Below are positions 16,824-54,935 of a stretch of DNA of 64,000 nucleotides, piece after piece. The DNA lies in the NCBI GenBank assembly GCA_051000605.1, contig JBPCOE010000118.1, positions 16,682 through 80,681 on the forward strand, written 5' to 3'. Numbering within the stretch: position 1 is the stretch's first letter; each line of letters begins with the position of its first letter. Under the pieces are notes generated by a model that saw nothing but the letters and a program-made list of their open reading frames with translations, was not told the DNA's origin and did no database searches. Source of the stretch: Jatrophihabitans sp. GTDB taxonomy: Bacteria; Actinomycetota; Actinomycetes; Mycobacteriales; Jatrophihabitantaceae. The position numbers were made by a program, and so were the translations under genes.

Positions 16824-18176
16824 TCAGACGGAGCCGACGACGCCTGCGAGACGGTTCGCGACGACGTCCGCGTGCTCCTGGGTGCCGGCCTCGACCATGA
16901 CCCGGACGAGCTGTTCGGTGCCCGACGGCCGCAGCAGCACCCGCCCGGACTCCCCGAGCTCGGTCTCGGCCTCGGTGATCGCGGCGCAGACCAAGCCTGA
17001 TGCCGCGACCGCGCCGCGATCGCCGACCCGGACGTTGATCAGCGTCTGCGGCAGGCGGTGCACGACGCCTGCGAGCTCGGCGAGCGGCGATCCGGTGGCC
17101 GCCATTCGCGCCATCACGTGCAGCGCGGTCAGCAGACCGTCGCCGGTGGTGGCGGCATCGGTGAACACGATGTGGCCGCTCTGCTCGCCGCCGAGGCTGA
17201 GATCCTTGGCCCGCAGGGCCTCCAGCACGTATCGGTCGCCGACGCCGGTGGTCAGGACCTCGATTCCCGCCGCGCGCATGGCGTGGTGGAAGCCGAGGTT
17301 GCTCATCACGGTCGCGACCACCGTCTCGGCGTTCAGCCGATGGCCGTCGCGCAACGCGAGAGCGCAGATCGCGAGCAGCTGGTCACCGTCGACGACGCCA
17401 CCGCCGGCGTCGACGGCGAGGCACCGGTCTGCGTCGCCGTCATGGGCGATGCCGAGGTGCGCGCCGGATCGCCGGACGGCCTCGACCAGACCGTCCAGAT
17501 GCGTCGAGCCGACGCCGTCGTTGATGTTGAGGCCGTCGGGGTCGGCCGCGATCGTCGTGACCTGCGCGCCCGCCCCGCGGTAGATGTCGGGCGCGACGAA
17601 GGACGCGGCACCGTTCGCGCAGTCGACGACGAGGTGCAGGCCGTCCAGCCGCGTGGGCTGCGCGTTGAGCAGGTGCGCGCCGTAGCGCTCGATCGCATCG
17701 TCTGCGCTGCGCAGCCGCCCGATCCGCGCCCCGGTGGGCCGCGCGCCCGGACCGGCGGCGACGGCGGACTCGATCTCGGCCTCGAGGTCGTCGGGCAGCT
17801 TGTGCCCGCCGGGCCCGAAGAGCTTGATGCCGTTGTCGGGCATGGGGTTGTGCGATGCCGACAGCACCACACCGACGTCCGCGCCGTAGGAGCCGGTGAG
17901 GAACGCGACTGCGGGCGTGGGCAGCACGCCCACGAGCAGGACGTCCGCGCCGGCCGAGGTCAGGCCGGCGACGACCGCGGCTTCCAGCATCTCGCCGCTG
18001 GCCCGGGGATCGCGCCCCACCACCGCCACCGGCCGGTGGGACGCGTCGTGGGCGACCAGGACTCGCGCCGCCGCGCCCGCGACTGCGAGCGCGAGTTCCG
18101 GGGTCAGGTCCGCGTTGGCCAGACCCCGAACCCCGTCCGTCCCGAACAATTTGATGCTCTTCGCGCGAGCGCTCAT
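16824..18176 (-). CDS. glmM: phosphoglucosamine mutase
   Basis: [28 protein letters not shown] motifs. Confidence 0.97.
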
Positions 18177-18230
18177 CGGTTGGCTCGCTCCGCTTCGCGC
18201 TCGCTGGCGCTCGCTGCGATGCTCACTCGC
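18156..18230 (-). repeat. MIRU-like interspersed element, copy J1 (rpsI-glmM)
   Basis: 18199-18228 is 28/30 identical to 41514-41543; 18156-18178 is identical to 54839-54861. Confidence 0.85.
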
Positions 18231-18241
18231 GATTCACAAAC

Positions 18242-18640
18242 TCAACGCTTGCTGTACTGCGGAGCCTTACGGGCCTTCTTCAGGCCGTACTTCTTGCGTT
18301 CCTTGACCCGCGGGTCGCGGGTGAGGAAGCCGGCTTTCTTGAGCGCCGGGCGGTCGTCGGGCTCGAGGTTGATCAGCGCCCGCGAGATGGCAAGACGCAG
18401 CGCACCGGCCTGCCCGCTGATGCCGCCGCCGATGAGACTGGCGAGAATGTCGAACTGGTCGACCTTCTCGAGGGTCACGAACGGCTCGCGGATGAGCTGC
18501 TGGTGGACCTTGTTCGGGAAGTAGGCCTCGAGCGTGCGGCCGTTGAGGGTGAACTGGCCGGTGCCCGGGATCAACCGGACGCGGACGATGGCTTCCTTGC
18601 GACGGCCGACAACGGGCGCGGTGGGGCTGGATGCGGTCAT
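18242..18640 (-). CDS. rpsI: 30S ribosomal protein S9
   Basis: [28 protein letters not shown]. Confidence 0.98.
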
Positions 18641-18717
18641 TTGACAACCTCGTTCTTCGCGCAAGCGCTCATCGCTTCGATCCTCGCTCGCGGGCGCTCG
18701 CTTCGATTATCACTCAC
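18637..18717 (-). repeat. MIRU-like element J2 (rplM-rpsI) carrying mini-[29 protein letters not shown]
   Basis: Contains GATGAGCGCTTGCGCGAAGAAC module; GTGA overlap upstream and ATGA overlap downstream. Confidence 0.8.
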
Positions 18718-19175
18718 TGGGACACCTGCTTGATCTCGAACGGCTGCGGCTTCTGCGCCGCGTGCGGATGGGCGGGGCCGGCGTAGACCTTCAGCTTCTT
18801 GAGCTGGGCACGGCCGAGGGTGTTCTTGGGGAGCATGCCGCGCACGGCCAGTTCGATGACGCGTTCGGGCTTGGTCTCGAGAAGTTCACCCACGGTGCGC
18901 TTGGACAACCCGCCGGGGTAACCCGAGTGGCGGTAGCGGAACTCGTTGAGCTTCGCGCCGGTGAGCGCGACCTTCTCGGCGTTGACGACGATGACGAAGT
19001 CGCCGGTGTCGACGTGCAGGGCGAACTGCGGCTTGTGCTTGCCGCGCAACAGCGCGGCGGCCTGGCTGGCGAGCCGGCCCAGGACGATGTCGTTGGCGTC
19101 GATGACGTGCCAGTGCCGCTCGATCTCACCCGGCTTCGGGGTGTACGTGCCCTTGTTGAGGGTACTGCGGGGCAT
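18714..19175 (-). CDS. rplM: 50S ribosomal protein L13
   Basis: WHVIDA, LGRLAS, HSGYPGG, GMLPKN. Confidence 0.98.
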
Positions 19176-19436
19176 GGTTGGCTCTCTTCGATCGGTCTTC
19201 ACGCGGATGCGCCCCCGCGGTCACCACCGACTGTGTCGGCGTGTACCCCGGGGCATGGCCGGGACGTGCGCATGAGTTCGCACGCCGATGCACGACACTA
19301 CCGGCCCGTGAACGAGGGCTCCAAATCACGCACGCCGCGCGCGCACCCGGAACACGAACACACGCGGCTCGTTACCCTGATCGAAACGGCAACAGCCGGC
19401 GTCAAGCGACGCAAGCGGTACGAACAGAGGTGAGGC

Positions 19437-20141
19437 GTGCAAGGCGTGCACAGGAAGGTGACCCGGGGCGGCGCGAACCAGGACCGGCTGGACGCTTCCC
19501 CGGTCCTCGAGCGCATCGGCTGGGTCCCGTTGGCGTGCCTCATCGGTGCGATCGTCCTCGCCTCCGTCGCCGGCATCACCTGGAACACGTCGCCCTACTA
19601 CGGCCGCAACGACAAGGTCCAGTCCGCCGCGAAGCCCCAGGCCGTCCCCGTCCAGGCCGGCAAATACCTCGTCACGCTCGCACCGAACCGCATCGACATC
19701 CCGACGCTGAGGGCCTCGGCCCCGATCGTCGACGTGGGCACGACGCCGGACCGCGAGCTCGAAATCCCCGTGAACCCACGGATCGCGGGTTGGTGGAGTC
19801 CCGGGGCGCAGCCGGGCGCGAAGGTCGGCACCGCCATCATCGCCGGGCACATCAACTATGCCGGTGTAACCGGCACGTTCGCGAACATCGGCAAGCTGCA
19901 TCCGGGCGACATCGTGAACGTCTACGGCAAGCAGAACGCAACGAAGGCGATGGTCGAGTTCAAGGTCACAGGGGTCCGCAACTACAAGAAGACCGCGCTG
20001 CCGTACCAGCAGATCTTCGACCAGAAGAGCGTCGGCCGGCTGGCGCTCGTCACCTGCGGCGGCGCGTTCGACACATCCACGGGGAGCTACCTCGAGAACA
20101 TCGTTGTCTTCGCCGTTCCCGTGACCAGCAAGACCCTCTGA
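19437..20141 (+). CDS. class F sortase
   Basis: N-terminal TM; AGWW..G..PG, AGH, LVTCGG.FD...Y.EN motifs. Confidence 0.88.
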   Translation: MQGVHRKVTRGGANQDRLDASPVLERIGWVPLACLIGAIVLASVAGITWNTSPYYGRNDKVQSAAKPQAVPVQAGKYLVTLAPNRIDIPTLRASAPIVDVGTTPDRELEIPVNPRIAGWWSPGAQPGAKVGTAIIAGHINYAGVTGTFANIGKLHPGDIVNVYGKQNATKAMVEFKVTGVRNYKKTALPYQQIFDQKSVGRLALVTCGGAFDTSTGSYLENIVVFAVPVTSKTL

Positions 20142-20150
20142 GGTCGCCCT

Positions 20151-21773
20151 TCAGCGGCCGTCGCGCGCGACGCGAGTCTCGTCGAACACCGGCTCGGTCG
20201 ACTCGTAGACTCGCCCGTCCGCTCCGAAGATCAGGAACCGGTCGAAGGACCGCGCGAACCAGCGGTCGTGCGTGACCGCCAGCACGGTACCGTCGAACGC
20301 CGCCAACGCCGCTTCGAGCGCCTCCGCGCTGAGCACGTCGAGGTTGTCCGTCGGCTCGTCGAGCAGCAGTAACGTGGCCCCGGAGAGTTCGAGCAGCAGG
20401 ATCTGAAACCGCGCCTGCTGGCCGCCGGACAACGTCCCGAACAGCTGCTCGGCCTGCGACCCGAGCCCGAAGCGCCGCAGGATCGACATCGCGCGGCCGC
20501 GGTCGAGGCCGCGCCGGTCCTCGCCACCGTCCCAGAGCATCTCGATCAATGTCCGACCGATCCACGAGGCGTGTGCGTGCGTCTGGGCGAAGTGCCCGGG
20601 TACGACCCGAGCGCCGAGCCGGCACGATCCGGTGTGCGCGACGCCCTGCCCCCCGAGCAACCGCAGGAAGTGCGACTTGCCGGCGCCGTTCGCGCCCAGC
20701 ACGCCGACGCGTTCGCCGTAGTAGATCTCGCTGTCGAACGGACGCATCAAGCCGCTCAGCTCCAGCTGCGCGCAGGTCACCGCGCGCACGCCGGTACGTC
20801 CGCCACGCAGGCGCATCGTCACCTTCTCGTCCGCGGGCTTGTCCGGCGGCGCCCCCGCCGCTTCGAACCGCTCGAGCCGACGCGCGGTCACGCGGTACTT
20901 CTGTGCCATCACCTCGCTGATCCGCGCCTGGATCTTCAGAGTCTGGACGAGATCCTTCAGCCGCGCGTGCTCCTCGTCCCACCGGCGACGCAGCTCGGCC
21001 ATCCGATCGTGCCGTTTCGAACGCGCGTCGTGGTAGGACGCAAAGCCGCCGCCGTGCACCCAGGTCGTTCCGCCCTCCACGGTGATCACCCGGTCGGCGA
21101 CGGTGGCCAGCAGCTCGCGGTCGTGGCTGACGAACAGCACCGTCTTGGCCGTGTCCTGCAGACGGTGTTCCAACCAGCGTTTGCCGGGGACGTCGAGGTA
21201 GTTGTCCGGCTCGTCGAGCAGCAGCACCTCGTCGCGTCCGCGCAGCAGCAGTTCGAGCGCGAGCCGCTTCTGCTCGCCGCCGGACAGCGTGGTCAGCTCG
21301 CGGTACTTGCAGCCCTCGTAGGGGATGCCGACGGCGGCGACGGTCACGGTGTCCCACAGCACCTCGGCGTCGTACCCGCCGGCGTCGCCCCACTCGGTGA
21401 TCGCGTGGGCGTACGCGAGCTGGGTCGTCTCGTCGTCGTGCTCCATCATGGCCAGCTCGGCGGCCTGCAGGTCGTCCCACGCTTTCTGCACCGGAAGGGA
21501 ACCGAGCCGCACCAGGAAGTCCTGGACGGTTGTGCTGTCCCGTACCGAACCGATGAACTGCCGCATGACGCCGACGCCGCCGACCCGCGTGATCGTGCCC
21601 GTCTGCGGCCGCTCGTCACCGGCGATCAGGCGCAGCAAGGTGGTCTTTCCGGCGCCGTTCGCACCGATCAGCGCTGCCTTGACGCCGTCACCGACGCGGA
21701 AGCTGGCACCGCCGAGCAGCATCCGCCCGTCGGGCAGGACGTGCCCGATGCCGGCCGTCTCGACGTATCCCAT
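20151..21773 (-). CDS. ABC-F family ATP-binding protein
   Basis: Two ATPase domains (GANGAGKT/GANGAGKS, LSGG, LLLDEP) with a helical linker; no TM segments. Confidence 0.92.
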   Translation of the reverse strand: MGYVETAGIGHVLPDGRMLLGGASFRVGDGVKAALIGANGAGKTTLLRLIAGDERPQTGTITRVGGVGVMRQFIGSVRDSTTVQDFLVRLGSLPVQKAWDDLQAAELAMMEHDDETTQLAYAHAITEWGDAGGYDAEVLWDTVTVAAVGIPYEGCKYRELTTLSGGEQKRLALELLLRGRDEVLLLDEPDNYLDVPGKRWLEHRLQDTAKTVLFVSHDRELLATVADRVITVEGGTTWVHGGGFASYHDARSKRHDRMAELRRRWDEEHARLKDLVQTLKIQARISEVMAQKYRVTARRLERFEAAGAPPDKPADEKVTMRLRGGRTGVRAVTCAQLELSGLMRPFDSEIYYGERVGVLGANGAGKSHFLRLLGGQGVAHTGSCRLGARVVPGHFAQTHAHASWIGRTLIEMLWDGGEDRRGLDRGRAMSILRRFGLGSQAEQLFGTLSGGQQARFQILLLELSGATLLLLDEPTDNLDVLSAEALEAALAAFDGTVLAVTHDRWFARSFDRFLIFGADGRVYESTEPVFDETRVARDGR

Positions 21774-21828
21774 GCGTCCAGTGTCGACGAGCGGGCGCGA
21801 TGCACCCCGGCGAGGGCAGAATCGAGGC

Positions 21829-30852: not shown

Positions 30853-31100
30853 GTCCTCCGCTTTTCAGCACTGACCGGCGTGCGCCGGACGTGCAGGTAA
30901 CTACGCTTCTGACTCAATCGGTGCATCGACGCGATCGTGAGGGATCCGGTCTTCGTCCGCGGCCACAGCGGAGCATATGAAGGACGGCGTGCGCCAACGA
31001 GCCAGTCTACCTAGCTACGTCCTCAGTCGCCAAAACGGGGTTCTAGAGCCGCCGACCAACTGCCCTGATGGGGCGGCGGAACGGACCGTACGGTGCAATA

Positions 31101-31715
31101 GTGGATACTGACGCAGCTCGTCCGTCGCTCGATGGCGCCGCCGCGAGACTGTGGCTGCAGAAATGGCGGTGGCATCACCGTCCGCGCCGGCCGTGGAACA
31201 TCGTTCGTCTGCACGTGGAACTGGCGAAGCGACAGGCGTTCGCCCGCGGTGCGCTGCACGGCAACCCGTTGCAGATGCTGCGCGAGGGACGGCTCGACAT
31301 CGGCCCGCAGGTCTACTTGGAGCCGGGCGTGTGGATCACCTCTGATTCCGGTCGGATCTCGATCGGCGGCGGCAGCCTGCTGAATCTGAACGTCATGGTC
31401 GCGGCGGTGGAGCGGGTCGATATCGGCGAGCACTGCATGCTCGCGAGCGGATGCGTTGTCACCGATGCCAACCACCGCTCCGACGACCTCGTCACCCCGG
31501 TGCCCTGGCAGGGGTTCACCAGCAAGGGCCCGGTCGTCATCGGTGACAACGTCTGGCTCGGTGCGAACGTCGTCGTCACCAGCGGGGTGACGATCGGCCG
31601 TCGCGCGGTGATCGGTGCGAACTCGGTGGTGACCACCGACGTCCCGGCGTTTGCGGTGGCTGCTGGCGCCCCGGCACGCGTCATCGCAACCATCCGGACC
31701 AACCCCGGCAGGTAG
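31101..31715 (+). CDS. left-handed beta-helix acyltransferase (maltose/galactoside O-acetyltransferase-like)
   Basis: Hexapeptide repeats VVIGDNVWLGANVVV, VIGANSVV, GAPARVI. Confidence 0.85.
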   Translation: MDTDAARPSLDGAAARLWLQKWRWHHRPRRPWNIVRLHVELAKRQAFARGALHGNPLQMLREGRLDIGPQVYLEPGVWITSDSGRISIGGGSLLNLNVMVAAVERVDIGEHCMLASGCVVTDANHRSDDLVTPVPWQGFTSKGPVVIGDNVWLGANVVVTSGVTIGRRAVIGANSVVTTDVPAFAVAAGAPARVIATIRTNPGR

Positions 31716-31830
31716 CACCGCGACGACCTCACGAAGGCAACCGGGGCCCGTTCGAGCCCGACAATGACTGCCGTCAGCGCGGCACTACGCATCGCGCCAA
31801 GACCGGCGTCGCTCCCGCATGATCCGATCG

Positions 31831-33384
31831 CTACTTGCGCACGGGCCGCTTGCGGGCCTCCTCGATACGGAGCCAGGGTAGGTAGAGGTCGCGCTGGAAG
31901 CTGTCGGGCCAGCGCTTCGCCAAGAACTCGAACTCGAAGGGACTCACATTGGGGGTGCGCGACTGCGATTCGAAGTGGTACAGCTCGCAGTCGGCGACCC
32001 ACAGCACGCGCAGCCCCGCATGCCGCACCTTGAGGGAGAGATCGACGTCGTTGTAGTTGCCCGGCAGACTCTCGCTCAGACCGCCGACCTGCTCGTACAC
32101 CTCACGGCGCAGCGCCGCGCACGCCGCCGTGACTCCCGAACACTCACGGGTGAGGACCAAGCTGGCGAACTCGCCCGGCGCTTCGTCGGACCATCGGTAG
32201 GCATGCCAAGGAAATGGTCTACGCCCAACGGAGGCATACAGGTGCCCACCGTGCTGGATGGTGCCGTCTGCGTAGTACAGCTTGGCGCCGGTCATGCCGA
32301 CGTCGGGCTCGGCCAGCGGCGCGACCAGCGCCTCCAGCCAGTTGTCGGAAATCACCTCGGTGTCGTCGTTGAGCAGTACGACTACGTCACCGCTCGCGCG
32401 CAGGAAGCCCAGATTGCACTTCTCGGAGAAGTTGAACGGCTCGCCGTAGGGCAGCAGGACAAGCCGGTCGCCGGCGATCTCGCGCAGCTGCGCCAGCGCG
32501 CCGGGCGGGGTGGGCTCGTCGTACACGACGACCACTTCGACGTCGCGGTGCTCGGTTTTGGCCAACGCGGTGCGGACGGCCTCCACCACGAAATATCGGG
32601 TCTCACCTGCTACCTCGCCGGTCTGCCCTCGCGTGGGCACGATCACGCTGACTCGGACGTCGGGGTCCAGCGTGCGAGTCACGCGGTGGTAACCCGGCAG
32701 CGGCCCGGGCGACACCGTGCCCGCGATGCCCCGCCGGTCGAGCTGGTCTTGCACCGCGGCGCGTGCGCCTTTGTCGGCCACTAACGCCGGGCGACGCGCC
32801 CGGTGGCACAGCACGCCCGGCAGGTGCGCGACGTCGCGCGCCCGCTCGGTTACCCGCAGCGTCAGGTCGTACTCCATCGTCGTCCCGCCGCGGTAACCAC
32901 CGACTTCTCTGACCAGCGCCGTACGCATGGCGCGGAACGCACCGATGTAGTCGCCGTGCCGGAGCCGTTCGGGCGACCAGGCGGGCTTGCGGATGACCTC
33001 ACGACCCGCGGCACCATCCGCGGCGGAAACATCGACATCGGCGTAGAGCACATCGACGTCGGGCGCAGCGTCGAGGGCTCGGGCAAGCCGGGCCAGCGCG
33101 TCCTTGGGCAGGGTGTCGCCGGGCTCGAAAACGACCAGGAAGGTTCCGAGTGCCGCCGTTATGGCCTGGTTGCGCAGCGTCGCCGCGTCAGCTCCGCAGG
33201 CTCCGTCGAGCACCCGAAGCCGCCGATCGGTCTGCTCAGCTATCCGAACGCCGCAGACAATCAGTTCCCAGTCCGTGAAGGACTGCGCGGACACCGAGGC
33301 GATGCTCGCCGATGTGAGATCAGGCTCGATCGAGTCCGCGTCCGCTGCCAGCAGCACCGAGAATTGTGGGGAAGCCAGGCTCAC
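31831..33384 (-). CDS. two-domain GT2 family glycosyltransferase
   Basis: YADVD, KPAWSPE, YDLTLR, PFNFSEKCN, LLNDDT, VTAACA, NDVDL motifs. Confidence 0.9.
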   Translation of the reverse strand: MSLASPQFSVLLAADADSIEPDLTSASIASVSAQSFTDWELIVCGVRIAEQTDRRLRVLDGACGADAATLRNQAITAALGTFLVVFEPGDTLPKDALARLARALDAAPDVDVLYADVDVSAADGAAGREVIRKPAWSPERLRHGDYIGAFRAMRTALVREVGGYRGGTTMEYDLTLRVTERARDVAHLPGVLCHRARRPALVADKGARAAVQDQLDRRGIAGTVSPGPLPGYHRVTRTLDPDVRVSVIVPTRGQTGEVAGETRYFVVEAVRTALAKTEHRDVEVVVVYDEPTPPGALAQLREIAGDRLVLLPYGEPFNFSEKCNLGFLRASGDVVVLLNDDTEVISDNWLEALVAPLAEPDVGMTGAKLYYADGTIQHGGHLYASVGRRPFPWHAYRWSDEAPGEFASLVLTRECSGVTAACAALRREVYEQVGGLSESLPGNYNDVDLSLKVRHAGLRVLWVADCELYHFESQSRTPNVSPFEFEFLAKRWPDSFQRDLYLPWLRIEEARKRPVRK

Positions 33385-33716
33385 TGTCTACCTCGACGGC
33401 GGCGCAGCCGCGCCGCAGGACGTACCAGCAGCCGACCTGCCCGCCACGTCGTCGACGCGCGCATGGCTGCAATGTCCTTGCGCAGCCGGTCGCGTTCGGC
33501 CGTCAGCTTGCGGGCGCGAGAAACTTCCCGATCGACGTCCGCCGTCAGCTGGACGTTCAAGCGACGCAGGTAATCCAGCTCCGCCTCAGCGCCGACAGCC
33601 CGGTCGGTAGCTCGCAGCAGGTCGTGGCGCAAGCCGACGATGGCGACCAGGGTCTGGTCATGATCGAACGGAACGACAGCGGCGCCCGGCTGCGGCTCGG
33701 CTAGCGGGTCGGTCAC
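33381..33716 (-). CDS. small coiled-coil protein
   Basis: Heptad-like middle and basic STTWRAGRLL tail; GTGA overlaps on both sides. Confidence 0.65.
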   Translation of the reverse strand: MTDPLAEPQPGAAVVPFDHDQTLVAIVGLRHDLLRATDRAVGAEAELDYLRRLNVQLTADVDREVSRARKLTAERDRLRKDIAAMRASTTWRAGRLLVRPAARLRRRRGRQ

Positions 33717-34630
33717 GGCCGTCCACTCGGGTGCGTCCAGCGACGTGCCCGCCGAGCCGCGCGCGCGGCGAGTTGGCGGCTCGGAGCGCTGTTCGGGGCA
33801 GGTGTCGACGGGCCCTTGGCCAGCTCGGCCACCCGAGTGGCGAGTGCGCTCTCGCGGGCGCGCAGTTCGCGTACCAATCGTCGCTGCTCGTCAAGCTGAG
33901 TGGTCAACGCGTCGACCAGGATCGCCTGCTGCGAACTGACCTGCACCGCGTCGTCCGGCACTACCCGTACGACGAACTGATAGGTCGTGGCCTCCGGGTC
34001 GGTGCGGAGCGCGTCCACCACGCGGGGATCGAAGTCCGCCTCGCGAACACCGACCTCGGTCTTGAACAACTCCGCTCTGGTGCGCCGCAGCTCGATCATC
34101 GTGAAACCGGCGTCGTGGACGAAGTCGACGAGGGAGGCCTTCGTGAAAAACCGCGTGTGCGTGTCGTCAAGCAAGCCGGTTTTGGTGTACCGGAACTGAC
34201 CGTGCAGCAGGGCCAGCCGCACGTCCCCGTGAGCGATGTTCGGCACCGAGATCAGCACACAGCCACCGGGAGCGACCAAGCCGCGCGCCTGACGTAGCAC
34301 CGGCAGCGGATCGCGCAGGTGCTCCAGAACGTCCCCGAACACGACGACGTCGAAGCTCGCGTGACCGAAGGCGACGGCCAGGTCGACCGTCTCGAGGTCG
34401 CCGACCTCGACGCGGTTGTAGCGGGTCCGGGCGACGTCCGCGGCGCTGTGATTGGACTCGAATCCGGAGGTGACGTTACCGAATGCTGCGAGTTGCTCGC
34501 CGAGGTAGCCGGTGTCACAGCCGATGTCCAGCACCCGCTTGTTGGCACCGACCATCGTCACCAGAAAGGCGTGGCTCGTGCCCGGCTGCTTGGCAAGGTC
34601 GAGCTCAATGTCGTACTTGGATACGGCCAA
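33713..34630 (-). CDS. class I SAM-dependent methyltransferase with C-terminal coiled coil
   Basis: VLDIGCDTG, FDVVVFGDVLEHL, ISVPNIAH, LLDDTHTRFFT; TTG start after GAGGAG. Confidence 0.88.
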   Translation of the reverse strand: MAVSKYDIELDLAKQPGTSHAFLVTMVGANKRVLDIGCDTGYLGEQLAAFGNVTSGFESNHSAADVARTRYNRVEVGDLETVDLAVAFGHASFDVVVFGDVLEHLRDPLPVLRQARGLVAPGGCVLISVPNIAHGDVRLALLHGQFRYTKTGLLDDTHTRFFTKASLVDFVHDAGFTMIELRRTRAELFKTEVGVREADFDPRVVDALRTDPEATTYQFVVRVVPDDAVQVSSQQAILVDALTTQLDEQRRLVRELRARESALATRVAELAKGPSTPAPNSAPSRQLAARAARRARRWTHPSGRP

Positions 34631-34671
34631 GGCACTCCTCCGTCCGCTTCGCCGAGACGCTAGCAGCCGAA

Positions 34672-34702
34672 AGGCCGGACACCTGAAAAAGGTGTCCGGC
34701 CT
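34672..34702 (-). terminator. stem-loop terminator/attenuator after the surface-protein gene
   Basis: Perfect 13-bp stem aggccggacacct/aggtgtccggcct with 5-nt loop, 20 nt after the stop. Confidence 0.75.
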
Positions 34703-34721
34703 CCCGGTAGTGCCGGAGGTG

Positions 34722-36473
34722 CTACTGCGCGTTACGCACCTGGCTCCCAGCTGGTGCCTGTACATCTGCCGGGATGTAGCCCACGACGTCCACCGCCGCG
34801 TTCATCGACGACCCCTCGGTGGCCAGCGTGATGGCCCCACCGTCGCCGAGTGGCACGATCGCCAGGTTGGCGACGTCGGTGTTCGGGCCGATGTAGTTGA
34901 TGTTGCTGACCACCGGCTTGATCGGACCGGGGTAGGCCCGCAGGTTTCCGACGCCCTTGCCACCCGTGACATGGATCGCGGTGAGGCTGACGACGACCGC
35001 CTTCGCGTCGGTCGGGACACCGCTGGTGGTCCCTGTGGTGACGGGGACGACCCGCGGCGTGCCGGCGACGATTGGGCCGCCCGTGTTACGGCTGTCGTAC
35101 ACCCGAACCGGAGGCTGGGTGATGGCCTGCGACGACACCGGCAGGTAGCCGAAGACGTCGATCGCCACGTTCGTCGAGGAGTGGTCGGAGTACAGCGTGA
35201 CCTTGCCGTCCGAGGACAGCTTTGTGATCACGAACGCTGCCTTGTCGACGCCCGGGACGTAGTTGACGTTGCTGCTCGTCGGCACCGGGTTATCGGCCGG
35301 GTACACCCGGAGGTTGCCGACACCGCTGGGCTGGCTTGCGGTGACGTTGATCGCCACAGACGTCGTACCGCTCGGGATGTTCCCCGCGCCGGTGACCTGG
35401 AAGGTCTTCGACGTGTTGGCGGGGATGGCGCCGGCGTCACCGCCGGTGCCGGTGCGCGTGTCCACGATGCGGGCCGGTGACACACCGGCGAAGCCGGTTG
35501 TCGAGCTGAAATACCCCTGCAGATCGATCACCACGTTCGCCGAGGCGGTGTCGCTGTAGACGGTGAACTTGTTGCAGAGCTGCCCGGCGGAGCCGAGGTT
35601 GGAAACGACCAGGTCGTTGGCGACGTCCTTCTGGGGCTGGTAGTTCACGATCGACGTGGTCGGCGGGCTCGGGTTACCGCACGCCGCGCTGATCCGCAGG
35701 TTGCCCGTTCGGGACGGCTGAACGCCGGTCACGTTGAACACGTAGGCGGCCTCGTTCAGCGGCACGTCGGTCTTCGTGAGGTCGAGCACGTAGCTCGTGT
35801 TGTTCCCCACCAAAGGGCCGGGGTTCAACGGGTTCGCGACTCGGGTGTCGACGATCCGGGTCGGAGTGACCGCAACGTACTGCGACTCGACGCGCACGGT
35901 GTCCGTGTCACTGGCCAGGGCCACGGTCCCCGAACCGACTACCTGATCGAGGGTGACGGTGCTGGTGAGCGTGCCGGTGGGTGCACCGCCACGCACCGAG
36001 ATCCGGAAGTTGCTGGTCAGCGTCGTGTTGGCGGGGAAGGTGAACCCGGCCGCGGGGCCGAAGGAGCCGGTGATCGCACCACCGGTGGCGGTCGTCGAAC
36101 CGGTGAGGGGCACGGGGGCGAACGTGCCGGTCGGGTTGCCCATCGCGTCGGGGAGCGCGTACTCCAAGGTGATGTCGCTTGCACTCAAGCCCGGGTCACC
36201 GGTGAGGCTGATGTCGTAGCGTGCGTTGTTGATGGCCTGGGTGCTGTTGTTCATAGCAGTCCCGCTGAACGAGGTCGCCGGGTCACCGGTCGTGATCTTT
36301 GTCGGGGTCGCCACTGCGATCGTCTGGGCGGGGGTCACCGCGTCCGCGGTCGTGCTCAGCGCCAACGCGCCGGCTGAGACCAGAGCGGCCGCGGTCAGCG
36401 TGCCCGCTGCCCGTCGAAGCCAGTGTTGGGTTCCGTGCACCTGTAACGGCCGTAGCCGGCTAGGCCTTGTCAT
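34722..36473 (-). CDS. large secreted Ser/Thr-rich protein with three tandem ~120-aa beta repeats (candidate surface-layer protein)
   Basis: Signal peptide ending TTADA; repeats begin TPTRIVDTR, SPARIVDTR, PPVRVYDSR, each followed by GNLR and N..IV motifs. Confidence 0.75.
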   Translation of the reverse strand: MTRPSRLRPLQVHGTQHWLRRAAGTLTAAALVSAGALALSTTADAVTPAQTIAVATPTKITTGDPATSFSGTAMNNSTQAINNARYDISLTGDPGLSASDITLEYALPDAMGNPTGTFAPVPLTGSTTATGGAITGSFGPAAGFTFPANTTLTSNFRISVRGGAPTGTLTSTVTLDQVVGSGTVALASDTDTVRVESQYVAVTPTRIVDTRVANPLNPGPLVGNNTSYVLDLTKTDVPLNEAAYVFNVTGVQPSRTGNLRISAACGNPSPPTTSIVNYQPQKDVANDLVVSNLGSAGQLCNKFTVYSDTASANVVIDLQGYFSSTTGFAGVSPARIVDTRTGTGGDAGAIPANTSKTFQVTGAGNIPSGTTSVAINVTASQPSGVGNLRVYPADNPVPTSSNVNYVPGVDKAAFVITKLSSDGKVTLYSDHSSTNVAIDVFGYLPVSSQAITQPPVRVYDSRNTGGPIVAGTPRVVPVTTGTTSGVPTDAKAVVVSLTAIHVTGGKGVGNLRAYPGPIKPVVSNINYIGPNTDVANLAIVPLGDGGAITLATEGSSMNAAVDVVGYIPADVQAPAGSQVRNAQ

Positions 36474-36710
36474 GAATTTCCCTTCGAAGTGGTGTGCTGA
36501 CCAGTCAGCCAGCGGGTGCGGAGCGTGATGCCGAGTCGAAAGCTCGAGCGGATCCGACTCAAGATCGCAGATAGGATCTCGGCGGGTCGGAGTATCCCTC
36601 CATTTCAGCCCGAGCGGGCAACGCCTCCAGCCGAGCGCAGCTGGGAGATCAATAAGCGGCGGACGTAGACTAACCCAACTTGTCAATGTTCATACCGCGA
36701 ACCACCGATG

Positions 36711-41053: not shown

Positions 41054-41455
41054 TCAGAATTCCAACCCTGCTTCGCGGGCCGCCTGCGCGAACGCCGCGA
41101 TCCGACCGGTGTAGGTGTTGCCGCCCCGGTCGAAGACAACCTTGGTGACGCCTGCCGACTTTGCCGCCTCGGCGAGCTGCGTGCCGACCTGCTTGGCCTG
41201 CGCTGTCTTGTCATGGCCGTCGTTCAATTTAGCCATTTTGAACGTCGACGCCGACGCGAGCGTTGCGCCTCGACCGTCGTCGACAACCTGAGCGAACAGG
41301 TGCCGCGCCGACCGAGTGACGACCAGGCGAGGACGCTCGGCGTTGCCGACGACCTTCTTGCGCAACCGGAAGTGGCGCCGGGCCTTCGACGCCCGGCGGA
41401 TGGCCGAGGTCCCCGCAGACCGGCGTGCCTGGCGTGCGATCGTGGATGCGCCCAT
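41054..41455 (-). CDS. rplR: 50S ribosomal protein L18
   Basis: [24 protein letters not shown]. Confidence 0.97.
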
Positions 41456-41545
41456 TCAGATCACCTGCTCCTCGCCCGAGCCCGAAACACTTGCTCCGCG
41501 CTGTACTTCCAGTGCTCGCTGACGCTCGCTACGATGCTCACTCAT
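41456..41545 (-). repeat. MIRU-like element J3 (rplF-rplR) carrying mini-[32 protein letters not shown]
   Basis: ATG overlaps the rplF stop (ATGA); TGA directly abuts the rplR ATG; 28/30 identity to J1. Confidence 0.85.
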
Positions 41546-42084
41546 TTCTTCCCTGCCTTACCGGCCTTGCGGCGGATGACCTCACCTTGGTAGCGCACGC
41601 CCTTGCCCTTGTACGGGTCGGGCTTGCGCAGCTTGCGGATCTTGGCGGCGACTTCGCCGACCTGTTGCTTGTCGATGCCCTCGACCACGAAACGGGTGGG
41701 AGCCTCGACGCGGAACGTGATGCCCGCAGGCGCCGGCACGAACACCGGGTGCGAGTATCCGAGCGCAAACTCGAGGTCGCTGCCCCTGGCCGTGACGCGG
41801 TAACCGGTGCCCACGATCTCCAGACGCTTGCTGTAGCCGTCCGTGACGCCGACGACCATGTTGGCGATCAGCGTGCGCGACAAGCCGTGCAGGGACTTGG
41901 ACTCGCGCTCGTCGTCCGGCCGCGAGACGGCGATGAGGCCGTCCTCGGCCTTCGCGACCGTGATGGGCGGCGCGACAGCGTGCGACAGCGTGCCCTTCGG
42001 CCCCTTGACCGTGACCGTCTGACCGTCGATGGCGACGTCGACGTCCGATGGGACGGCCACCGGAAGCCTTCCGATGCGACTCAT
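41542..42084 (-). CDS. rplF: 50S ribosomal protein L6
   Basis: [25 protein letters not shown]. Confidence 0.98.
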
Positions 42085-42135
42085 GATGTTTTCACCTTGC
42101 TCTTCGCGCGATGCTCACTCATAGCTTCGCCTCAC
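42081..42135 (-). repeat. MIRU-like element J4 (rpsH-rplF), short fused form with mini-[16 protein letters not shown] (42081-42122)
   Basis: ATGAGTGAGCATCG joined directly to CGCGAAGAGC; ATGA overlap with rplF. Confidence 0.75.
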
Positions 42136-42536
42136 CAGACGTAGGCGAGAACTTCTCCGCCTACCCCACGCTTGGCTGCCTGCCGGTCGGTCAGCAGTCC
42201 GTTGGACGTCGAGATGATCGCGACGCCGAGGCCACCCAGCACGCGGGGTAGACCGGTCGACTTGGCGTACACACGCAGGCCCGGCTTGGACACGCGCCGC
42301 ACACCCGCGATCGAACGCTCGCGATTCGGGCCGAATTTCAGGTCGATGGTCAGCACCTTGCCGACCTGTCCCTCGGGAGCATCGGCGATCTTGAAGCCGG
42401 CAATGTAGCCCTCCTGCTTCAGGATCTGCGCGATGTGCCCCTTGAGCTTGGAGTGCGGCATCACCACGGTGTCGTGAAAAGCCGTGTTGCCGTTGCGCAG
42501 ACGCGTCAACATGTCCGCGATCGGGTCGGTCATCAT
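42132..42536 (-). CDS. rpsH: 30S ribosomal protein S8
   Basis: [27 protein letters not shown]. Confidence 0.98.
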
Positions 42537-42701
42537 AGGACTTCTTCTCTTCTCTCGCGCCGGTTCCGGTAAAGGCCTGCCGCGAAGCAGTAATGAAACG
42601 AACAGATAATCAGTGGTTGTTCTCTTTAGTTAGGTCGTGCTTCCCAGTTACGAAACCGGGACTTGAGCAACGGCGTTCCCCAAGCAGTGGCGGGAAGGAG
42701 G

Positions 42702-42789
42702 GCTGGGTTCCGATGCGATGTACGGCCGCGTAAAGGCGCGAAGCGCAGCGGCCGAACATCGACGTCGGAATCAAGCCCGAACCCACAGC
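42702..42789. repeat. long imperfect stem-loop directly after rpsZ
   Basis: gctggg...ttccga...cgatgt.cggccgc pairs with gcggccg.acatcg...tcggaa...cccacagc; inner gcgcgaagcgc. Confidence 0.6.
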
Positions 42790-42975: not shown

Positions 42976-43563
42976 TCAGCTGTTCTCCTTGAACGGGAAG
43001 CCGAGTGCGCGTAGCAGCGCCCGGCCCTCGTCGTCGTTGGTCGCGGTGGTGACCACGGTGGTGTCCATGCCACGCGGACGGTCGATCGAGTCGGGGTCGA
43101 TCTCGTGGAACATCGACTGCTCGGTCAGGCCGAAGGTGTAGTTGCCGTTGCCGTCGAACTGCCGGTCGGACAGCCCGCGGAAGTCCCGGATGCGCGGCAA
43201 CGCCAGGGAAAGCAGCCGGTCGAGGAACTCCCACATCCGGTCGCCGCGCAGGGTGACCTTCGCGCCGATCGGCATGCCCTCGCGCAACTTGAACTGCGCG
43301 ATCGACTTGCGGGCCTTTTGCACCAGCGGCTTCTGGCCGGTGATGAGGGTGAGGTCGCGCACGGCGCCGTCCATGAGCTTGCTGTCCTTGGCCGCCTGGC
43401 CGACGCCCATGTTGACGACGATCTTCGTCAGGCCGGGGACCTGCATCGGGTTGGCGAAGGAGAACTCCTTCGTCAGCGCCGGGGCGATCTCGTCCCGGTA
43501 GCGGGTCTTGAGCCGCGGGGCCGGGGTTTCGGTGGCGGCCGTGGTCTCGGTTGACGCTGTCAT
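42976..43563 (-). CDS. rplE: 50S ribosomal protein L5
   Basis: [25 protein letters not shown]. Confidence 0.98.
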
Positions 43564-43880
43564 GACAGATCCTTTCCGGAGCGGCGCGAGATACGCACGT
43601 TGCGCCCGGACTGCTCGTCGCGCCGGTAACCGACGCGGGTGGCCTTGCCGTCGGCGCCGATCACCATGACGTTGCTGGCGCTGATCGCGGCTTCGATGTG
43701 CTCGATGCCGCCGGCCTTCGCGCCGCGATTGTCCTGCGAGATCGACGTGTGCTTGGTGACTCGGTTCACGCCTTCGACGACGACCTTGTTCGTGTCGGGG
43801 TTGGCCGCGATGACCTTGCCCTTGACGCCGCGATCCTTGCCGGCGATGACGACGACCTCGTCGCCCTTTTTGACCTTCAT
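43560..43880 (-). CDS. rplX: 50S ribosomal protein L24
   Basis: [27 protein letters not shown]. Confidence 0.97.
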
Positions 43881-43966
43881 CGGACTTCCTCGTTCCGCTC
43901 GTCAGCCCTGTTCAGGCCGACTACCACCTTGCTGTGCCTATAGATCCGCTCGCTGCGCTCACTCAT
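43877..43966 (-). repeat. MIRU-like element J5 (rplN-rplX) carrying mini-[32 protein letters not shown]
   Basis: TGATG overlap with the rplN stop and ATGA overlap with the rplX start; 5' ATGAGTGAGCGCAGCGAGCG module. Confidence 0.8.
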
Positions 43967-44334
43967 CAGAGCACCTCGGGTGCAAGAGAAATGATCTTCA
44001 TGAACCGCTTGTCGCGCAGCTCCCGGCCCACGGGGCCGAAGATGCGAGTCCCGCGGGGCTCGCCGTCGGTCTTGATCAGCACGGCCGCGTTCTCGTCGAA
44101 GCGGATGTAACTGCCGTCCGGACGGCGGCGTTCCTTGACGGTGCGCACGATGACCGCTTTGACGACGTCGCCTTTCTTGACGCCGGCGCCGGGCAGCGCG
44201 TCCTTGACCGTGGCGACGATGATGTCGCCGATCCCGGCGTAGCGACGCCCCGAGCCGCCCATCACCCGGATGCACAAGATTTCCTTGGCGCCGGTGTTGT
44301 CGGCGACCCGAAGTCGCGACTCCTGCTGAATCAC
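43966..44334 (-). CDS. rplN: 50S ribosomal protein L14
   Basis: [24 protein letters not shown]. Confidence 0.98.
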
Positions 44335-51286: not shown

Positions 51287-51363
51287 TGTGGATCCCTTTC
51301 CCTCTTTGGGTAGTACCGGTCTTCTAGGTCCGGCTGTGTTGACTGTTGTCTTGAAACTCTTGG

Positions 51364-53460
51364 TTACTCGCCGTTCACCTTCGCGATGATCTCCTTGGCC
51401 ACGTTCCCCGGGACCTCGGCGTACTTCTCGAACTGCATCGAGTAGCTGGCGCGGCCCTGCGTCTTGCTGCGCAGGTCCCCGACATAGCCGAACATCTCCG
51501 ACAGCGGCACCAGCGCCTTGACGACGCGGTTGCCACCCCGCTCCTCCATGGCCTGGATCTGGCCACGGCGCGAGTTGAGGTCGCCGATGACGTCGCCCAT
51601 GTTCTCCTCGGGCGTGGTCACCTCGACTGCCATCATCGGCTCCAGCAGAGCCGGGTCGGCCTTCCGCGCGGCGTTCTTGAACACGATCGAACCCGCGATC
51701 TTGAACGCCATTTCGGAGGAGTCGACATCGTGGTAGCCACCGTCGAGCAGTGTCATCCGAATGCCGACCAGCGGGTAGCCGGCGAGGATGCCGTACTGCA
51801 TGGCCTCCTGCGCACCGGCGTCCACCGAAGGGATGAACTCCCTGGGGATACGCCCACCGGAGACGGCGTTGACGAACTCGTAGCTCGGTCCGTCCGACGT
51901 CATCTCCATCGGCTCCAGCTTGATCTGCACCTTCGCGTACTGGCCGGACCCACCCGTCTGCTTCTTGTGGGTGTAGTCCTCCTTCTCCACGACGCGACGG
52001 ATCGTCTCGCGGTAGGCCACCTGCGGCTTGCCCACGTTGGCCTCGACCTCGAACTCGCGACGCATCCGGTCGACGAGGATCTCCAGGTGGAGCTCGCCCA
52101 TCCCCTTGATGATGGTCTGGCCGGTCTCCTCGTCCTGCTGGACCTGGAAGGTCGGGTCTTCCTCGGCGAGCTTCTGGATCGCGACGCCCAGCTTCTCCTG
52201 GTCGCCCTTCGTCTTCGGCTCGATCGCGACGTTGATGACCGGGTCCGGGAAGGTCATGGACTCCAGCACGATCGGCTTCTGCGGGTCCGACAGCGTGTCA
52301 CCGGTGGTGGTCTGCTTCAGCCCCGCAACGGCGATGATGTCGCCGGCGCCGGCCCGCGGCAGCTCCTCACGCTTGTTCGCGTGCATCTGGTAGATCTTGC
52401 CGATCCGCTCCTTGCGGTCCTTCGTCGAGTTGAGAACCTGCGCACCGTTCTCGACGACGCCGGAGTAGATCCGCACGTAGGTGAGCTTGCCGAGGAACTT
52501 GTCGGTGGCGATCTTGAAGGCCAGCGCGGCCAGCGGCTCCGACTCGTCGGGGTGCCGCTCAGCGGGTGTCTCGCCGTCCTGCAGAAGACCGGTCACCTCG
52601 CCGACATCCAGCGGCGACGGCAGGTAGTCCACGACCGCATCGAGCAGCGGCTGCACGCCCTTGTTCTTGAATGCGGAGCCGGTGAGCACCGGGTTGATCA
52701 GGTCGGCCAGGGTGGCCCGGCGGATCGCGGCCTTGAGCGTCTCGACCGACAGCTCCTCGCCGTCCAGGTACGCCTCGGCGATCGCATCGTCCACGTCTGC
52801 CAGCGTCTCGATCAGCTTCTCGCGCCACTCCGCGGCCTGATCGGCAAGCTCCGCCGGGATCTCCTCGATGGTGTAGTCCTCACCCATCTCGGTCTCTCCG
52901 CGCCAGACCAGCGCGCGCATCCCGAGCAGGTCGACGACGCCGATGAAGCTGGACTCGTTGCCGATCGGGATCTGCAGCACCAGCGGGGTGGCGTTGAGGC
53001 GGTCGATCATCATCTGCACACAGCGGAAGAAGTCCGCGCCGGTGCGGTCCAGCTTGTTGACGAAGCACATCCGCGGGACGGAATACTTGTCTGCCTGCCG
53101 CCACACCGTCTCGGTCTGCGGCTCGACACCGGCGACACCGTCATAGACGGCAACCGCACCGTCGAGCACGCGCAGGTTGCGCTCCACCTCGACGGTGAAG
53201 TCGACGTGCCCAGGAGTGTCGATCAGGTTGATGGTGTGGTCTTTCCACTCACACTTGGTGGCAGCCGACGTGATCGTGATGCCACGTTCCTGCTCCTGCT
53301 CCATCCAGTCCATGACGGCAGCACCGTCGTGCACCTCACCGATCTTGTACGTGATGCCGGTGTAGAAGAGGATGCGCTCGGTGGTCGTGGTTTTACCCGC
53401 GTCGATATGCGCCATGATCCCGATGTTCCGGGTCTTGGACAGGCGTGCGGTTACAGACAT
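51364..53460 (-). CDS. fusA: elongation factor G
   Basis: [29 protein letters not shown]. Confidence 0.99.
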
Positions 53461-53507
53461 CTTCGCTTCCGTCTCGGGTTCTAGTTCTGTCTTTGTCTGG
53501 TGGGTAT

Positions 53508-53978
53508 CTACCAGCGGTAGTGGGCGAAGGCCTTGTTCGACTCCGCCATCTTGTGCATGTCCTCGCGACGCTTGACCGCGGCGCCCAGACCATTGCTGGC
53601 ATCCAGCAGCTCGTTCATCAGCCGCTCTGTCATCGTCTTCTCACGACGCTGCCTGGAGAAGCCGACCAGCCAGCGCAGCGCCAGCGTGGTGCTGCGGCTC
53701 GGGCGCACGTCGACCGGCACCTGGTAGGTGGCGCCACCGACGCGACGGCTCTTCACCTCGATGGCAGGCTTGACGTTCTCCAGCGCGCGCTTCAGCGTGA
53801 TCACCGGGTCGGCGCCGGACTTCTCGCGGCAACCTTCGAGGGCGCCGTAGACGATGCGCTCGGCTACCGAACGCTTACCGGCCATCAGCACCTTGTTGAC
53901 CAGCTGGGTCACCAGCGGTGAGGCATAGACCGGGTCGATGACTAGCGGACGACGCGGGGGCGGTCCCTTGCGGGGCAT
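53508..53978 (-). CDS. rpsG: 30S ribosomal protein S7
   Basis: [28 protein letters not shown]. Confidence 0.99.
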
Positions 53979-54352
53979 TAGCGCTTCTCCTTCTTCGCGC
54001 CGTACAGGCTGCGAGCCTGCTTGCGGCCGCGGACGCCCTGGGTGTCCAAGGTGCCGCGGATGATCTTGTAGCGGACGCCGGGGAGGTCCTTCACCCGACC
54101 ACCACGCACGAGCACGATCGAGTGCTCCTGAAGGTTGTGACCGACGCCCGGGATGTAGGCGGTGACCTCGATACCGCCGGTCAGCTTCACTCGGGCCACC
54201 TTGCGCAGCGCGGAGTTCGGCTTCTTCGGGGTCGTCGTGTAGACGCGAGTGCAGACTCCGCGGCGCTGGGGCGAACCCTTCAGCGCAGGGGTCTTCGTCT
54301 TCGCGATCTTGTCCTGCCGGCCCTTGCGGACCAGCTGCTGGATCGTAGGCAT
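53978..54352 (-). CDS. rpsL: 30S ribosomal protein S12
   Basis: [30 protein letters not shown]. Confidence 0.99.
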
Positions 54353-54726
54353 GCGGCCTGCAATCTCCCTTGCTGTCTCGTACCTGTCTCGCCGACCGGT
54401 CCCGGCTGGGATCGGCCTGTTCCTGCGTCGCTCTGTACGTGTGCGGTGCCGTAGTGCTGCGTTCAATTCCCACGTACTTGCTGCACTCCGTGCCCGTCTC
54501 CGGTCCACGCGGTCGGGTGTGTCGCACCCATTTCGCAGGGCAGGCAGGAGGCCAACCCCCTGGTCTGCACGGTGTTCTCGTCCACCGCTGCGGTACGTAG
54601 CACCTGAGCCGAAATCGGCCTTCTGGCTCCACGCCACCCGCGAGCACGAGTCGATACCCAGGTTTCCCCAGGCACAGGTGACCACAGTACCCGCGCAGCG
54701 CGGCCGGGGCAAAACTGTGCTGTGCT

Positions 54727-54935
54727 CATGATCGCCTCATCGATTCCTCGCGGAACCCTCGCTCCGCATCGGGGCCCACTCTCGATCGATACCTCGCTTC
54801 GCTCGGCCGCAAGCTCGCTGCGCTCGCGCGGGCGATCTGCTCTTCGCGCGAGCGCTCATCGCGTGGGGGTCACCCGACCGCCGTCACCCTGACCTGTCCG
54901 CGCGAGCGCTCATCGCGTGGGGGTCACCCGACCGC
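54727..54935 (-). repeat. cluster of MIRU-like modules upstream of rpsL (J6), including a 37-bp direct repeat with 54-bp period
   Basis: 54845-54881 equals 54899-54935; 54839-54861 equals 18156-18178; gctcgctgcgctc shared with J5. Confidence 0.85.

Follow-up and report, generated by a model that had tools for sequence, protein, structure and literature searches.

The window analysed here is a stretch of 64,000 nucleotides (nt) from a contig of Jatrophihabitans sp. (JBPCOE010000118.1, positions 16,682 to 80,681, assembly GCA_051000605.1). Its translation operons lie on the minus strand, from rpsL (start 54352) to glmM (16824), and five junctions of these operons, rpsI-glmM, rplM-rpsI, rplF-rplR, rpsH-rplF and rplN-rplX, contain members of one repeat family, designated J1 to J5 in this order. 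A longer relative, J6, is found upstream of rpsL. J1-J5 probably belong to a short (~40-95 nt) modular interspersed repeat that is inserted at the stop/start junctions of co-directional genes and that would relay ribosomes from one gene to the next.

The family is made up of a 5' module and a 3' module, with AGCGAG-rich sequence throughout. Within the window both modules are found on the minus strand only, which is the strand encoding the operons. Matches to the 5' module lie at 18199-18230 (two mismatches) and 41514-41545 (no mismatch), and those to the 3' module at 18156-18177, 18652-18673 and 54839-54860 (no mismatch) and at 54893-54914 (three mismatches); 100 shuffles gave no match to either. 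Over the 5' module, J1 and J3 are identical at 28 of 32 positions, with all four differences within the first 24 bases, and around the 3' module J1 and J6 are identical at 24 of 25. These values agree with the high identities quoted in a preliminary description of the window that was made from its sequence without database searches. Independent evidence came from profiles made solely from copies of other genomes, one of nine composite sequences and one of 136 copies of the 5' module. With nhmmer, the composite profile matched J1 (E 2.8e-17), J2 (8.9e-14) and J3 (3e-7) over nearly its full length and, more weakly, J6a (4e-5), J6b (0.016) and J4 (0.018), while the 5'-module profile matched J1 (1.3e-12), J3 (9.4e-9), J2 (8.7e-7), J4 (0.013) and J5 (0.11). 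All these matches are sense-oriented. In addition, J3 and J4 were confirmed with 0 differences by independent Logan contigs from two sediment-metagenome runs. The interspersed modular repeat family is genuine and statistically solid. The preliminary description had proposed six members; J1-J4 and J6 are recovered by profile, and J5 is related by its head only and is marginal.

As also first reported there, the accessory blocks of the window contain no family copy. A profile match at 59275-59311 on the minus strand (E 0.0036) is probably due to chance; it lies antisense within a plus-strand open reading frame (ORF; 58581-59474) of coding-like composition. Other long spacers of the operons are likewise without a copy (rpsQ-rplN, rplO-secY, rpsD-rpoA, rplQ-truA and rpsN-rpsH). 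The last of these, between rpsN (encoding a type Z S14, end ~42789) and rpsH, is unusually long (42537-42788, ~250 nt) and has no Rfam hit.

Read on the coding strand, every operonic copy forms an open-reading-frame bridge between the neighboring genes. The copies begin on or beside the upstream stop codon (NTGA, TGATG) and finish on the downstream start codon (ATGA, TGAATG), and of the three frames of the head, ATGAGTGA, one has a start and two have stops. J2 is a single mini-ORF of 26 codons for amino acids, whose GTG overlaps the rplM stop (GTGA) and whose TGA overlaps the rpsI start (ATGA). In J3, the ATG of a mini-ORF of 29 amino acids overlaps the rplF stop (ATGA) and its own stop adjoins the rplR ATG (TGAATG). 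J4 joins a 5'-module head to a 3'-module tail, giving a 13-amino-acid mini-ORF that finishes in the ATGA of the rplF start. J5, which has only its head (ATGAGTGAGCGCAGCGAGCG) in common with the family, is a 29-amino-acid mini-ORF extending from TGATGA at the rplN stop to ATGA at the rplX start. Shine-Dalgarno (SD)-like tracts are present 8-16 nt ahead of the downstream start in J2-J5 (GAGG, AGGTG, GAGGAG and GAGGA). J1 contains an internal tandem (CAGCGAGCGC twice) and a series of overlapping mini-ORFs starting with TTG (18245-18234), GTG (18237-18223) and GTG (18226-18173), followed by an ATG (18176) in frame with glmM; the order of the relay would be TTGA, GTGA, GTGA and ATGA.

The last step in J1 concerns the start of glmM itself. 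The PGM_PMM_I domain (Pfam) begins at residue 9 of the ORF opened by ATG 18176. In relatives, glmM has its own ATG (ATGGGCCGCCTGTTC) three codons ahead of the conserved LFGTDG. Because this ATG is missing from the window gene, the start of glmM is now probably the ATG of the J1 3' module (18176), with the first 8-9 codons derived from the module, or else TTG 18149. Automatic annotation would give the protein a nine-residue N-terminal extension of repeat origin.

Comparison with relatives shows which of these junctions are filled and which are empty. Across 80 actinobacterial RplF loci, the gap in relatives is normally -1 to 12 nt at rplN-rplX (85 in the window), 9-18 nt at rpsH-rplF (47 in the window) and -4 to +3 nt at rplF-rplR (86 in the window), and in the closest relative (locus L121; loci of other genomes are given L numbers) all three junctions are empty. 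At rplM-rpsI, the closest metagenomic RpsI loci read cagTGAGTGACC (TGAGTG), with stop and start adjacent or overlapping, and at rpsI-glmM they have a gap of 4-22 nt. Logan contigs further show that related organisms of the same samples skip J4 and J5 and have 4-15 nt instead. Since the closest relatives have a short gap or an overlap at each of these junctions, J1-J5 are lineage-specific insertions, not ancestral leaders, and the initial remark that such junctions are usually short holds at each of the five. Alignment of empty and filled rplM-rpsI junctions places the insert between GTGA and CCGC, ending in ATGA, which leaves NTGA at both ends. The differences between filled and empty sites are seen at the level of species or of metagenome-assembled genomes (MAGs).

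Other relatives carry insertions at the same or at neighboring junctions. L122 has an orthologue of J5 of equal length and frame, the middle of which differs at many positions, and similar bridging elements occupy rplN-rplX in L169 and L185. In addition, rplX and rplE, which overlap by 4 nt in the window, have a 34-nt 3'-module unit between them in L122, and L123 has full composite units at both rplN-rplX and rplF-rplR. At rplN-rplX of L123 (1160-1300), the composite element is followed, ahead of rplX, by a repeat of the last ~35 nt of rplN (AAGATCATTTCTCTCGCTCCCGAGGTGCTGTAG), apparently a duplication of the end of this upstream gene caused by the insertion. The rplF-rplR junction of L122 (identical to L049) is occupied by a 64-nt insert unrelated to the family that also forms a bridging mini-ORF (TAATG...CGATGA), and bridging ORFs may be a general requirement for anything persisting in this junction. 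Finally, in four distant metagenomic relatives (L450, L452, L457 and L472), GAGCAGAGCAGCGAGCGGAGCGAAATGG is found directly before glmM, at the same junction as J1; it is AGCGAG-rich like the core of the family.

The distribution of the family was then followed in other genomes; module loci are those among the matches listed, and their counts are lower bounds. Exact copies of the 20-nt 3' module (GATGAGCGCTYGCGCGAAGA) are present in more than 120 stretches, often in tandem with a period of 32 or 33, and the hosts include Mycobacterium, Mycolicibacterium, Mycobacteroides, Jatrophihabitantaceae, Pseudonocardiales and Nakamurella. The 5' module occurs, with various tails, in more than 118 stretches, the hosts of which include Jatrophihabitans, Modestobacter, Blastococcus, Geodermatophilus, Nakamurella, Pseudonocardia, Frankiales and Micromonosporaceae. 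Units measure 32-95 nt and tandem periods are 30-33, 52-87 and 131. At three loci of period 131 (L295, L313 and L328), the composite units contain a nested palindrome (GGGGTCCCCGCGAAATCGTGTCAGCGATTTCGCGGGG...), as if another small element had entered the first one. Plasmid and phage collections gave no match, except for one IMG/VR contig with the 3' module. Exact module matches were also recorded in contigs binned as Dehalococcoidia, Gammaproteobacteria, Melainabacteria, Verrucomicrobiia, Alphaproteobacteria, Oscillatoria and Novosphingobium (L076, L088, L094, L095, L113, L300, L311 and L321). Some (L095, L311) are in tandem arrays of the kind usual for the family and suggest actinobacterial contigs that were mis-binned, and others look like chance matches inside genes. 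In the literature searched, no paper gave the module sequences or described such a family outside Mycobacterium, which is not proof of novelty.

These copies allow the relation of the family to its neighbors to be examined statistically. Of 101 arrays of other genomes, 58 are sense and 9 antisense between co-directional genes; together with the exclusively sense copies of the window, this upholds the early observation that the elements follow the direction of transcription. Of 141 arrays, 105 have the TGA of the first head in frame with the preceding gene (p 5e-24), and 51 of 79 have the following gene in the -4/-1 coupling frame (p 3e-8). Unbroken stop/start overlaps lead to a coding-like ORF in 112 of 203 arrays, 86 of them by a -4 overlap and 18 by in-frame fusion; a frame-shifted control of this ORF-chain test gave a similar share (48% vs 55%), and the frame and period statistics take its place. 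Tandem periods of the 3' module are mostly 32 (31 cases) and 33 (16 cases), with 30, 75 and 81 also found, and a period of 1 mod 3 occurs only once in 54. At period 32, each unit ends in the ATGA of the next one, and at period 33 the units are concatenated in frame.

The preliminary description also considered the family to be concentrated in essential operons, and this is not borne out. Downstream genes of 123 coupled arrays in other genomes represent 139 Pfam families, the commonest being Mce, IlvN, PyrB (aspartate/ornithine carbamoyltransferases), Tad/T2SSF and ABC permeases, with ribosomal proteins outside the top 25. Inspection by eye added atpG, atpC, sucD, leuB, miaB and ftsZ to the junction genes, and a few ribosomal junctions (L017 rpsN-rpsH, L109 rplW-rplB and L316 rplX-rplE). 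In the window, 5 of ~36 co-directional junctions are filled in the translation blocks vs 0 of ~22 elsewhere (one-sided ~0.08, hand-computed hypergeometric). What is preferred is apparently any tight junction of a multi-gene operon, and the ribosomal superoperon offers many of these.

Altogether, the anatomy of the copies suggests the following mechanism. A unit opens with NTGAG, of which NTG would be a start codon and TGA terminates the upstream gene, with a second TGA in the ATGAGTGA head. It contains an open mini-ORF and ends just before the downstream start, mostly by ATGA (-4 overlap). Ribosomes leaving the upstream gene would begin anew on the mini-ORF, or on several of them in a chain, and so reach the start of the downstream gene. 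After an insertion, translational coupling and the stoichiometry of the operon would be left largely intact, and operon expression would be little disturbed (PMC12548453). Because such a relay would keep coupling intact, inserts would be tolerated even inside ribosomal-protein operons. Where the frame fits, the gene that follows can take the ATG of the element as its start, as glmM does here. The element would be mobile, now or formerly, and would duplicate NTGA, or the start codon, at its target. Such a duplication fits a comparison of 117 arrays, in which the left flank and the 3' end show raised identity only at NTGA and 1-2 nt upstream. Longer target-site duplications of 10-14 nt are seen at some loci (L358, L283 and L044), but population-wide the excess does not extend beyond this short segment.

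Several points weigh against this mechanism. NTGA stop/start overlaps are common in high-GC genomes; the overlap alone is therefore weak, and the argument is carried by the frame and period statistics. SD-like tracts show no enrichment at the 3' end (51 of 106) over the left flank (41 of 106), ~20-45% of the arrays in other genomes are devoid of an unbroken relay, and some arrays are antisense or between convergent genes. Terminal inverted repeats, a target-site duplication of fixed length other than NTGA and an associated transposase were not found. The RAYT/TnpA-like enzyme (RAYT, REP-associated tyrosine transposase) that the preliminary description had envisaged was not found either, as the window ORFs scanned contain no RAYT or transposase domain. 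Translation of the mini-ORFs and coupling of expression are deduced from geometry, and mobility from comparative presence and absence. Lastly, J5 is only a marginal member by profile.

The absence of transposase, of terminal inverted repeats and of a fixed target-site duplication may also mean that the elements are not mobile. They would then have spread locally, by replication slippage, template switching or gene conversion, or have arisen repeatedly from an (AGCGAG)n-like microsatellite under selection for a coupling spacer. The modules are indeed internally repetitive (the J1 tandem and the AGCGAG-rich sequence), tandem arrays are common, and the duplicated rplN 3' end stands beside an element in L123. 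We nevertheless consider this explanation unlikely. Hundreds of unrelated loci, in families that range from Mycobacterium to Jatrophihabitans and Nakamurella, share the 20-nt module unchanged; composite units of ~85 nt are near-identical at unrelated operons of different genomes; and close relatives are polymorphic for insertions at different junctions. Convergence cannot account for this module identity and insertion polymorphism, and gene conversion needs a pre-existing copy at each site.

A second explanation would be that the elements act through RNA or DNA structure, as hairpins of the type of repetitive extragenic palindromes (REP) and bacterial interspersed mosaic elements (BIME), as processing or stabilizer sites, or as terminators or attenuators, the ORFs being incidental. 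An 11-bp inverted repeat is conserved in J6 and its longer relatives, described below, many of which have a second hairpin around GAGCG(N)AGCGAG; these longer copies often stand after genes or between convergent genes, and the nested palindrome of L295, L313 and L328 points the same way. However, the folds of J1-J5 are no more stable than those of dinucleotide shuffles (z -1.2 to +0.2), a scan of the whole window found no Rfam family at gathering score, and the 32-nt mycobacterial units are without any partner arm. Structure also leaves unexplained the frame relation to both neighbors and the near absence of 1 mod 3 periods. The frame and period constraints act on the reading frame, not on structure, and for the operonic copies a purely structural role is improbable.

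It is very improbable that the mini-ORFs are genuine small-protein genes, encoding peptides (e.g. MSARAKS...) with a function of their own. Their frames are open, with good initiation contexts and recurring N-termini, but conservation at the nucleotide level crosses frames (J1 uses three frames, J2 and L102 one), and the commonest polymorphism of the 3' module turns Arg into Cys. Moreover, the middle of J5 has diverged from that of its L122 orthologue at many positions while length and frame were kept, and many copies per genome lie at unrelated loci. Autogenous regulators of ribosomal proteins are known in the spc, S10 and alpha operons, and the location of J1-J5 might recall ancestral cis-regulatory leaders of this kind, with binding sites for ribosomal proteins that are alike by chance; this explanation, raised in the preliminary description, is to be discarded, since the closest relatives, like most actinobacteria, have nothing inserted at the five sites, and the same sequences are found elsewhere in mce, pyr, ilv, tad and ABC-transporter operons, with no Rfam leader hits.

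J6 differs from the copies that are predicted to relay ribosomes. The preliminary description had placed a member upstream of rpsL; a relative is present there but is not within an operon, as it lies in the 875-nt intergenic region that separates rpsL (start 54352) from a divergent gene of the pfkB family (55228+). Within it is a 54-nt direct duplication (54840-54881 and 54894-54935) with the 3' module in each copy, and the proximal copy runs on into CGCGCGAGCGCAGCGAGCTTGCG...GAGCGAAGCGAG. This corresponds to a longer "type B" element, the layout of which is GGTGACC(C)ACAACGC, the 3' module, CGCGCGAGCGCAGCGAGCTTGCG and then ...CCCGAGCG(N)AGCGAGCGG. The inverted repeat of J6 pairs GCGCTCGCGCG (54855-54845) with CGCGCGAGCGC (54830-54820). 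Both arms are kept among the aligned type-B copies, where a C/T change preserves a G-C or G-U pair, while the overall fold of J6 is no more stable than shuffles (z -1.2 to -1.8). In Jatrophihabitantaceae, type-B elements are mostly found after genes or between convergent genes, and a homologous copy lies upstream of nrdR in L387. A promoter scan upstream of rpsL gave no promoter-like site. The role of J6 is possibly structural.

Table. Elements and neighboring genes in the window (positions of the whole stretch)
Feature	Position	Strand	Evidence
J1, composite (5' and 3' modules), rpsI-glmM	18150..18245	-	sequence, ORF chain, nhmmer (both profiles)
J2, composite, rplM-rpsI	18637..18717	-	sequence, mini-ORF, nhmmer
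J3, diverged composite, rplF-rplR	41456..41545	-	sequence, mini-ORF, nhmmer (both profiles)
J4, short hybrid, rpsH-rplF	42081..42122	-	sequence, mini-ORF, nhmmer (both profiles)
J5, head-only relative, rplN-rplX	43877..43966	-	sequence, mini-ORF, nhmmer (head)
J6, longer type-B element, 385-580 nt upstream of rpsL start	54735..54935	-	sequence, alignment with six type-B copies from other genomes
11-bp inverted repeat in J6	54820..54855	-	minimum free energy fold, perfect stem
glmM (phosphoglucosamine mutase)	16824..18176	-	Pfam and comparison with relatives
rpsI (S9)	18242..18640	-	Pfam Ribosomal_S9
rplM (L13)	18714..19175	-	Pfam Ribosomal_L13
rplR (L18)	41054..41455	-	Pfam
rplF (L6)	41542..42084	-	Pfam
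rpsH (S8)	42132..42536	-	Pfam
rplX (L24)	43560..43880	-	Pfam
rplN (L14)	43966..44334	-	Pfam
rpsL (S12)	53978..54352	-	translation and Pfam

The window comes from an uncultured actinobacterium that is not a Mycobacterium. It has a G+C content of 65-73%, and its nearest genomes by RplF (86-82% amino acid identity) are MAGs of uncultured Actinomycetes, one of which gives the top match (86%), and MAGs labelled Pseudonocardiales or Jatrophihabitans. Two sediment-metagenome runs contain ~0.9 and 0.83 of the sampled words of the window (Logan). Within the translation region, between the infA/rpmJ side and map, an accessory block (31000-36700) contains genes for a hexapeptide acyltransferase (plus strand), a family-2 glycosyltransferase and a methyltransferase, and an ORF of 654 amino acids (34722-36686) without Pfam match.

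Among known systems, the closest are the MIRUs (interspersed repetitive units of mycobacteria; Supply et al., 1997, as summarised in PMC12548453), which insert at start codons and form an ORF coupled at -4 (PMC12548453). Both are short direct repeats, single or in tandem, sense-oriented between co-directional genes of operons, with a small ORF overlapping the stop of the preceding gene and coupled at -4 to the start of the next. Both also have filled and empty alleles among relatives, and a start codon (ATGA...) that is apparently duplicated at both ends. The MIRU-like behavior proposed in the preliminary description is thus seen in the mini-ORFs, which overlap the flanking stop and start codons.

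For a comparison of sequences, the senX3-regX3 locus was collected from 80 genomes, M. tuberculosis (Mycobacterium tuberculosis) not being among them, with a RegX3 sequence as query, matching at 96-99% in slow-growing Mycobacterium. Seven slow-growing species have a MIRU of 53-63 nt at this locus (ATGACC...GCAGAGCGWAGCGATGAGGAGGAG...ATGA), and three close relatives have the empty site gtcgATGACC. A profile of these seven copies, which come from non-tuberculous slow growers and not from the ~40 M. tuberculosis loci, gave with nhmmer a best E of 2.8 in the window and nothing in the 3'-module or 5'-module loci. Conversely, the composite and 5'-module profiles did not match the senX3-regX3 MIRUs. 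Some short words are in common (CGAAGCGATGAG in J2 and L203; GCGAGGCACGAGCGA in L213 and many 5' modules), without being significant. The family is therefore distinct from MIRUs, as had been supposed, with no profile cross-matches, and the likeness of words that had been suggested is not detectable with profiles. In addition to showing no detectable similarity in either direction to MIRUs, as represented by these seven copies, it differs from them in being modular (a 5' module, several alternative tails and a minimal unit of 32/33 nt) and in a host range far beyond Mycobacterium, which includes Jatrophihabitans, Geodermatophilaceae, Nakamurella, Pseudonocardia and others. The elements thus have the architecture of MIRUs, but by sequence they are not classed with them, and the host of the window copies is not a Mycobacterium.

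One 5'-module copy (L366:2565-2640) carries an internal insert, GTGGGGGCACCTCCCGCTTGCGGGGGA, that presumably resembles closely the extra 24-nt segment separating the 77-nt from the 53-nt MIRU of M. tuberculosis. This type of motif was found in 1 of 395 loci, and the insert is a possible link between the window family and MIRUs.

A wider reading, which we offer tentatively and on balance lean against, would see in all these elements an undescribed superfamily of modular "junction cassettes" of high-GC actinobacterial families, duplicating start codons at stop/start junctions and tolerated by ribosome relay, with the MIRUs of M. tuberculosis as one derived branch. The families spanned belong to the Mycobacteriales in the broad GTDB sense. 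If the superfamily exists, a conserved trans-acting partner would be expected, since the 20-nt module is exact from Mycobacterium to Jatrophihabitans and Nakamurella. This partner would be a mobilizing enzyme or a reader acting at the level of RNA or of the ribosome, and phylogenetic profiling over hundreds of genomes would then offer a way to study how MIRUs move.

MIRUs have been markers for tuberculosis typing for decades and, to our knowledge, it is still unsettled where they came from, how they spread and why operons tolerate them. That a second family combines the architecture of MIRUs with an unrelated sequence points to the translationally coupled junction insert as a general strategy. 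The present family is spread over many actinobacterial families, including cultivable non-pathogens, and is found even in ribosomal-protein operons. It thereby provides many independent insertions for defining target rules, model hosts for studying the relay and a broad phylogeny for seeking a mobilizing gene. It also matters for annotation, as the inserts create spurious long intergenic regions, hide true start codons (glmM) and add N-terminal extensions.

Other known systems are more distant. Like REP/BIME sequences, which are linked to RAYT, the elements are short, abundant, intergenic and chromosomal, and the type-B relative J6 has an inverted repeat; in contrast, operonic copies have no stable palindrome and are under strong constraints of sense strand and reading frame, and no RAYT was seen in the window ORFs scanned. 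They also differ from miniature inverted-repeat transposable elements (MITEs), as the folds of J2-J5 show no end-to-end pairing and the excess of flank identity is limited to NTGA and 1-2 nt. Rickettsia palindromic elements (RPE) are palindromic and insert in frame inside ORFs. They too are small repeats that are tolerated through keeping frames intact, and the in-frame fusion to glmM is analogous, whereas the window elements sit between ORFs and form a relay ORF of their own. Finally, engineered bicistronic designs couple a short leader ORF to the gene of interest (PMC12548453): an upstream short ORF, the stop of which overlaps the target start, delivers ribosomes and insulates expression from its context. 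Such designs are synthetic, whereas here a natural repeat family appears to supply the same device at many loci.

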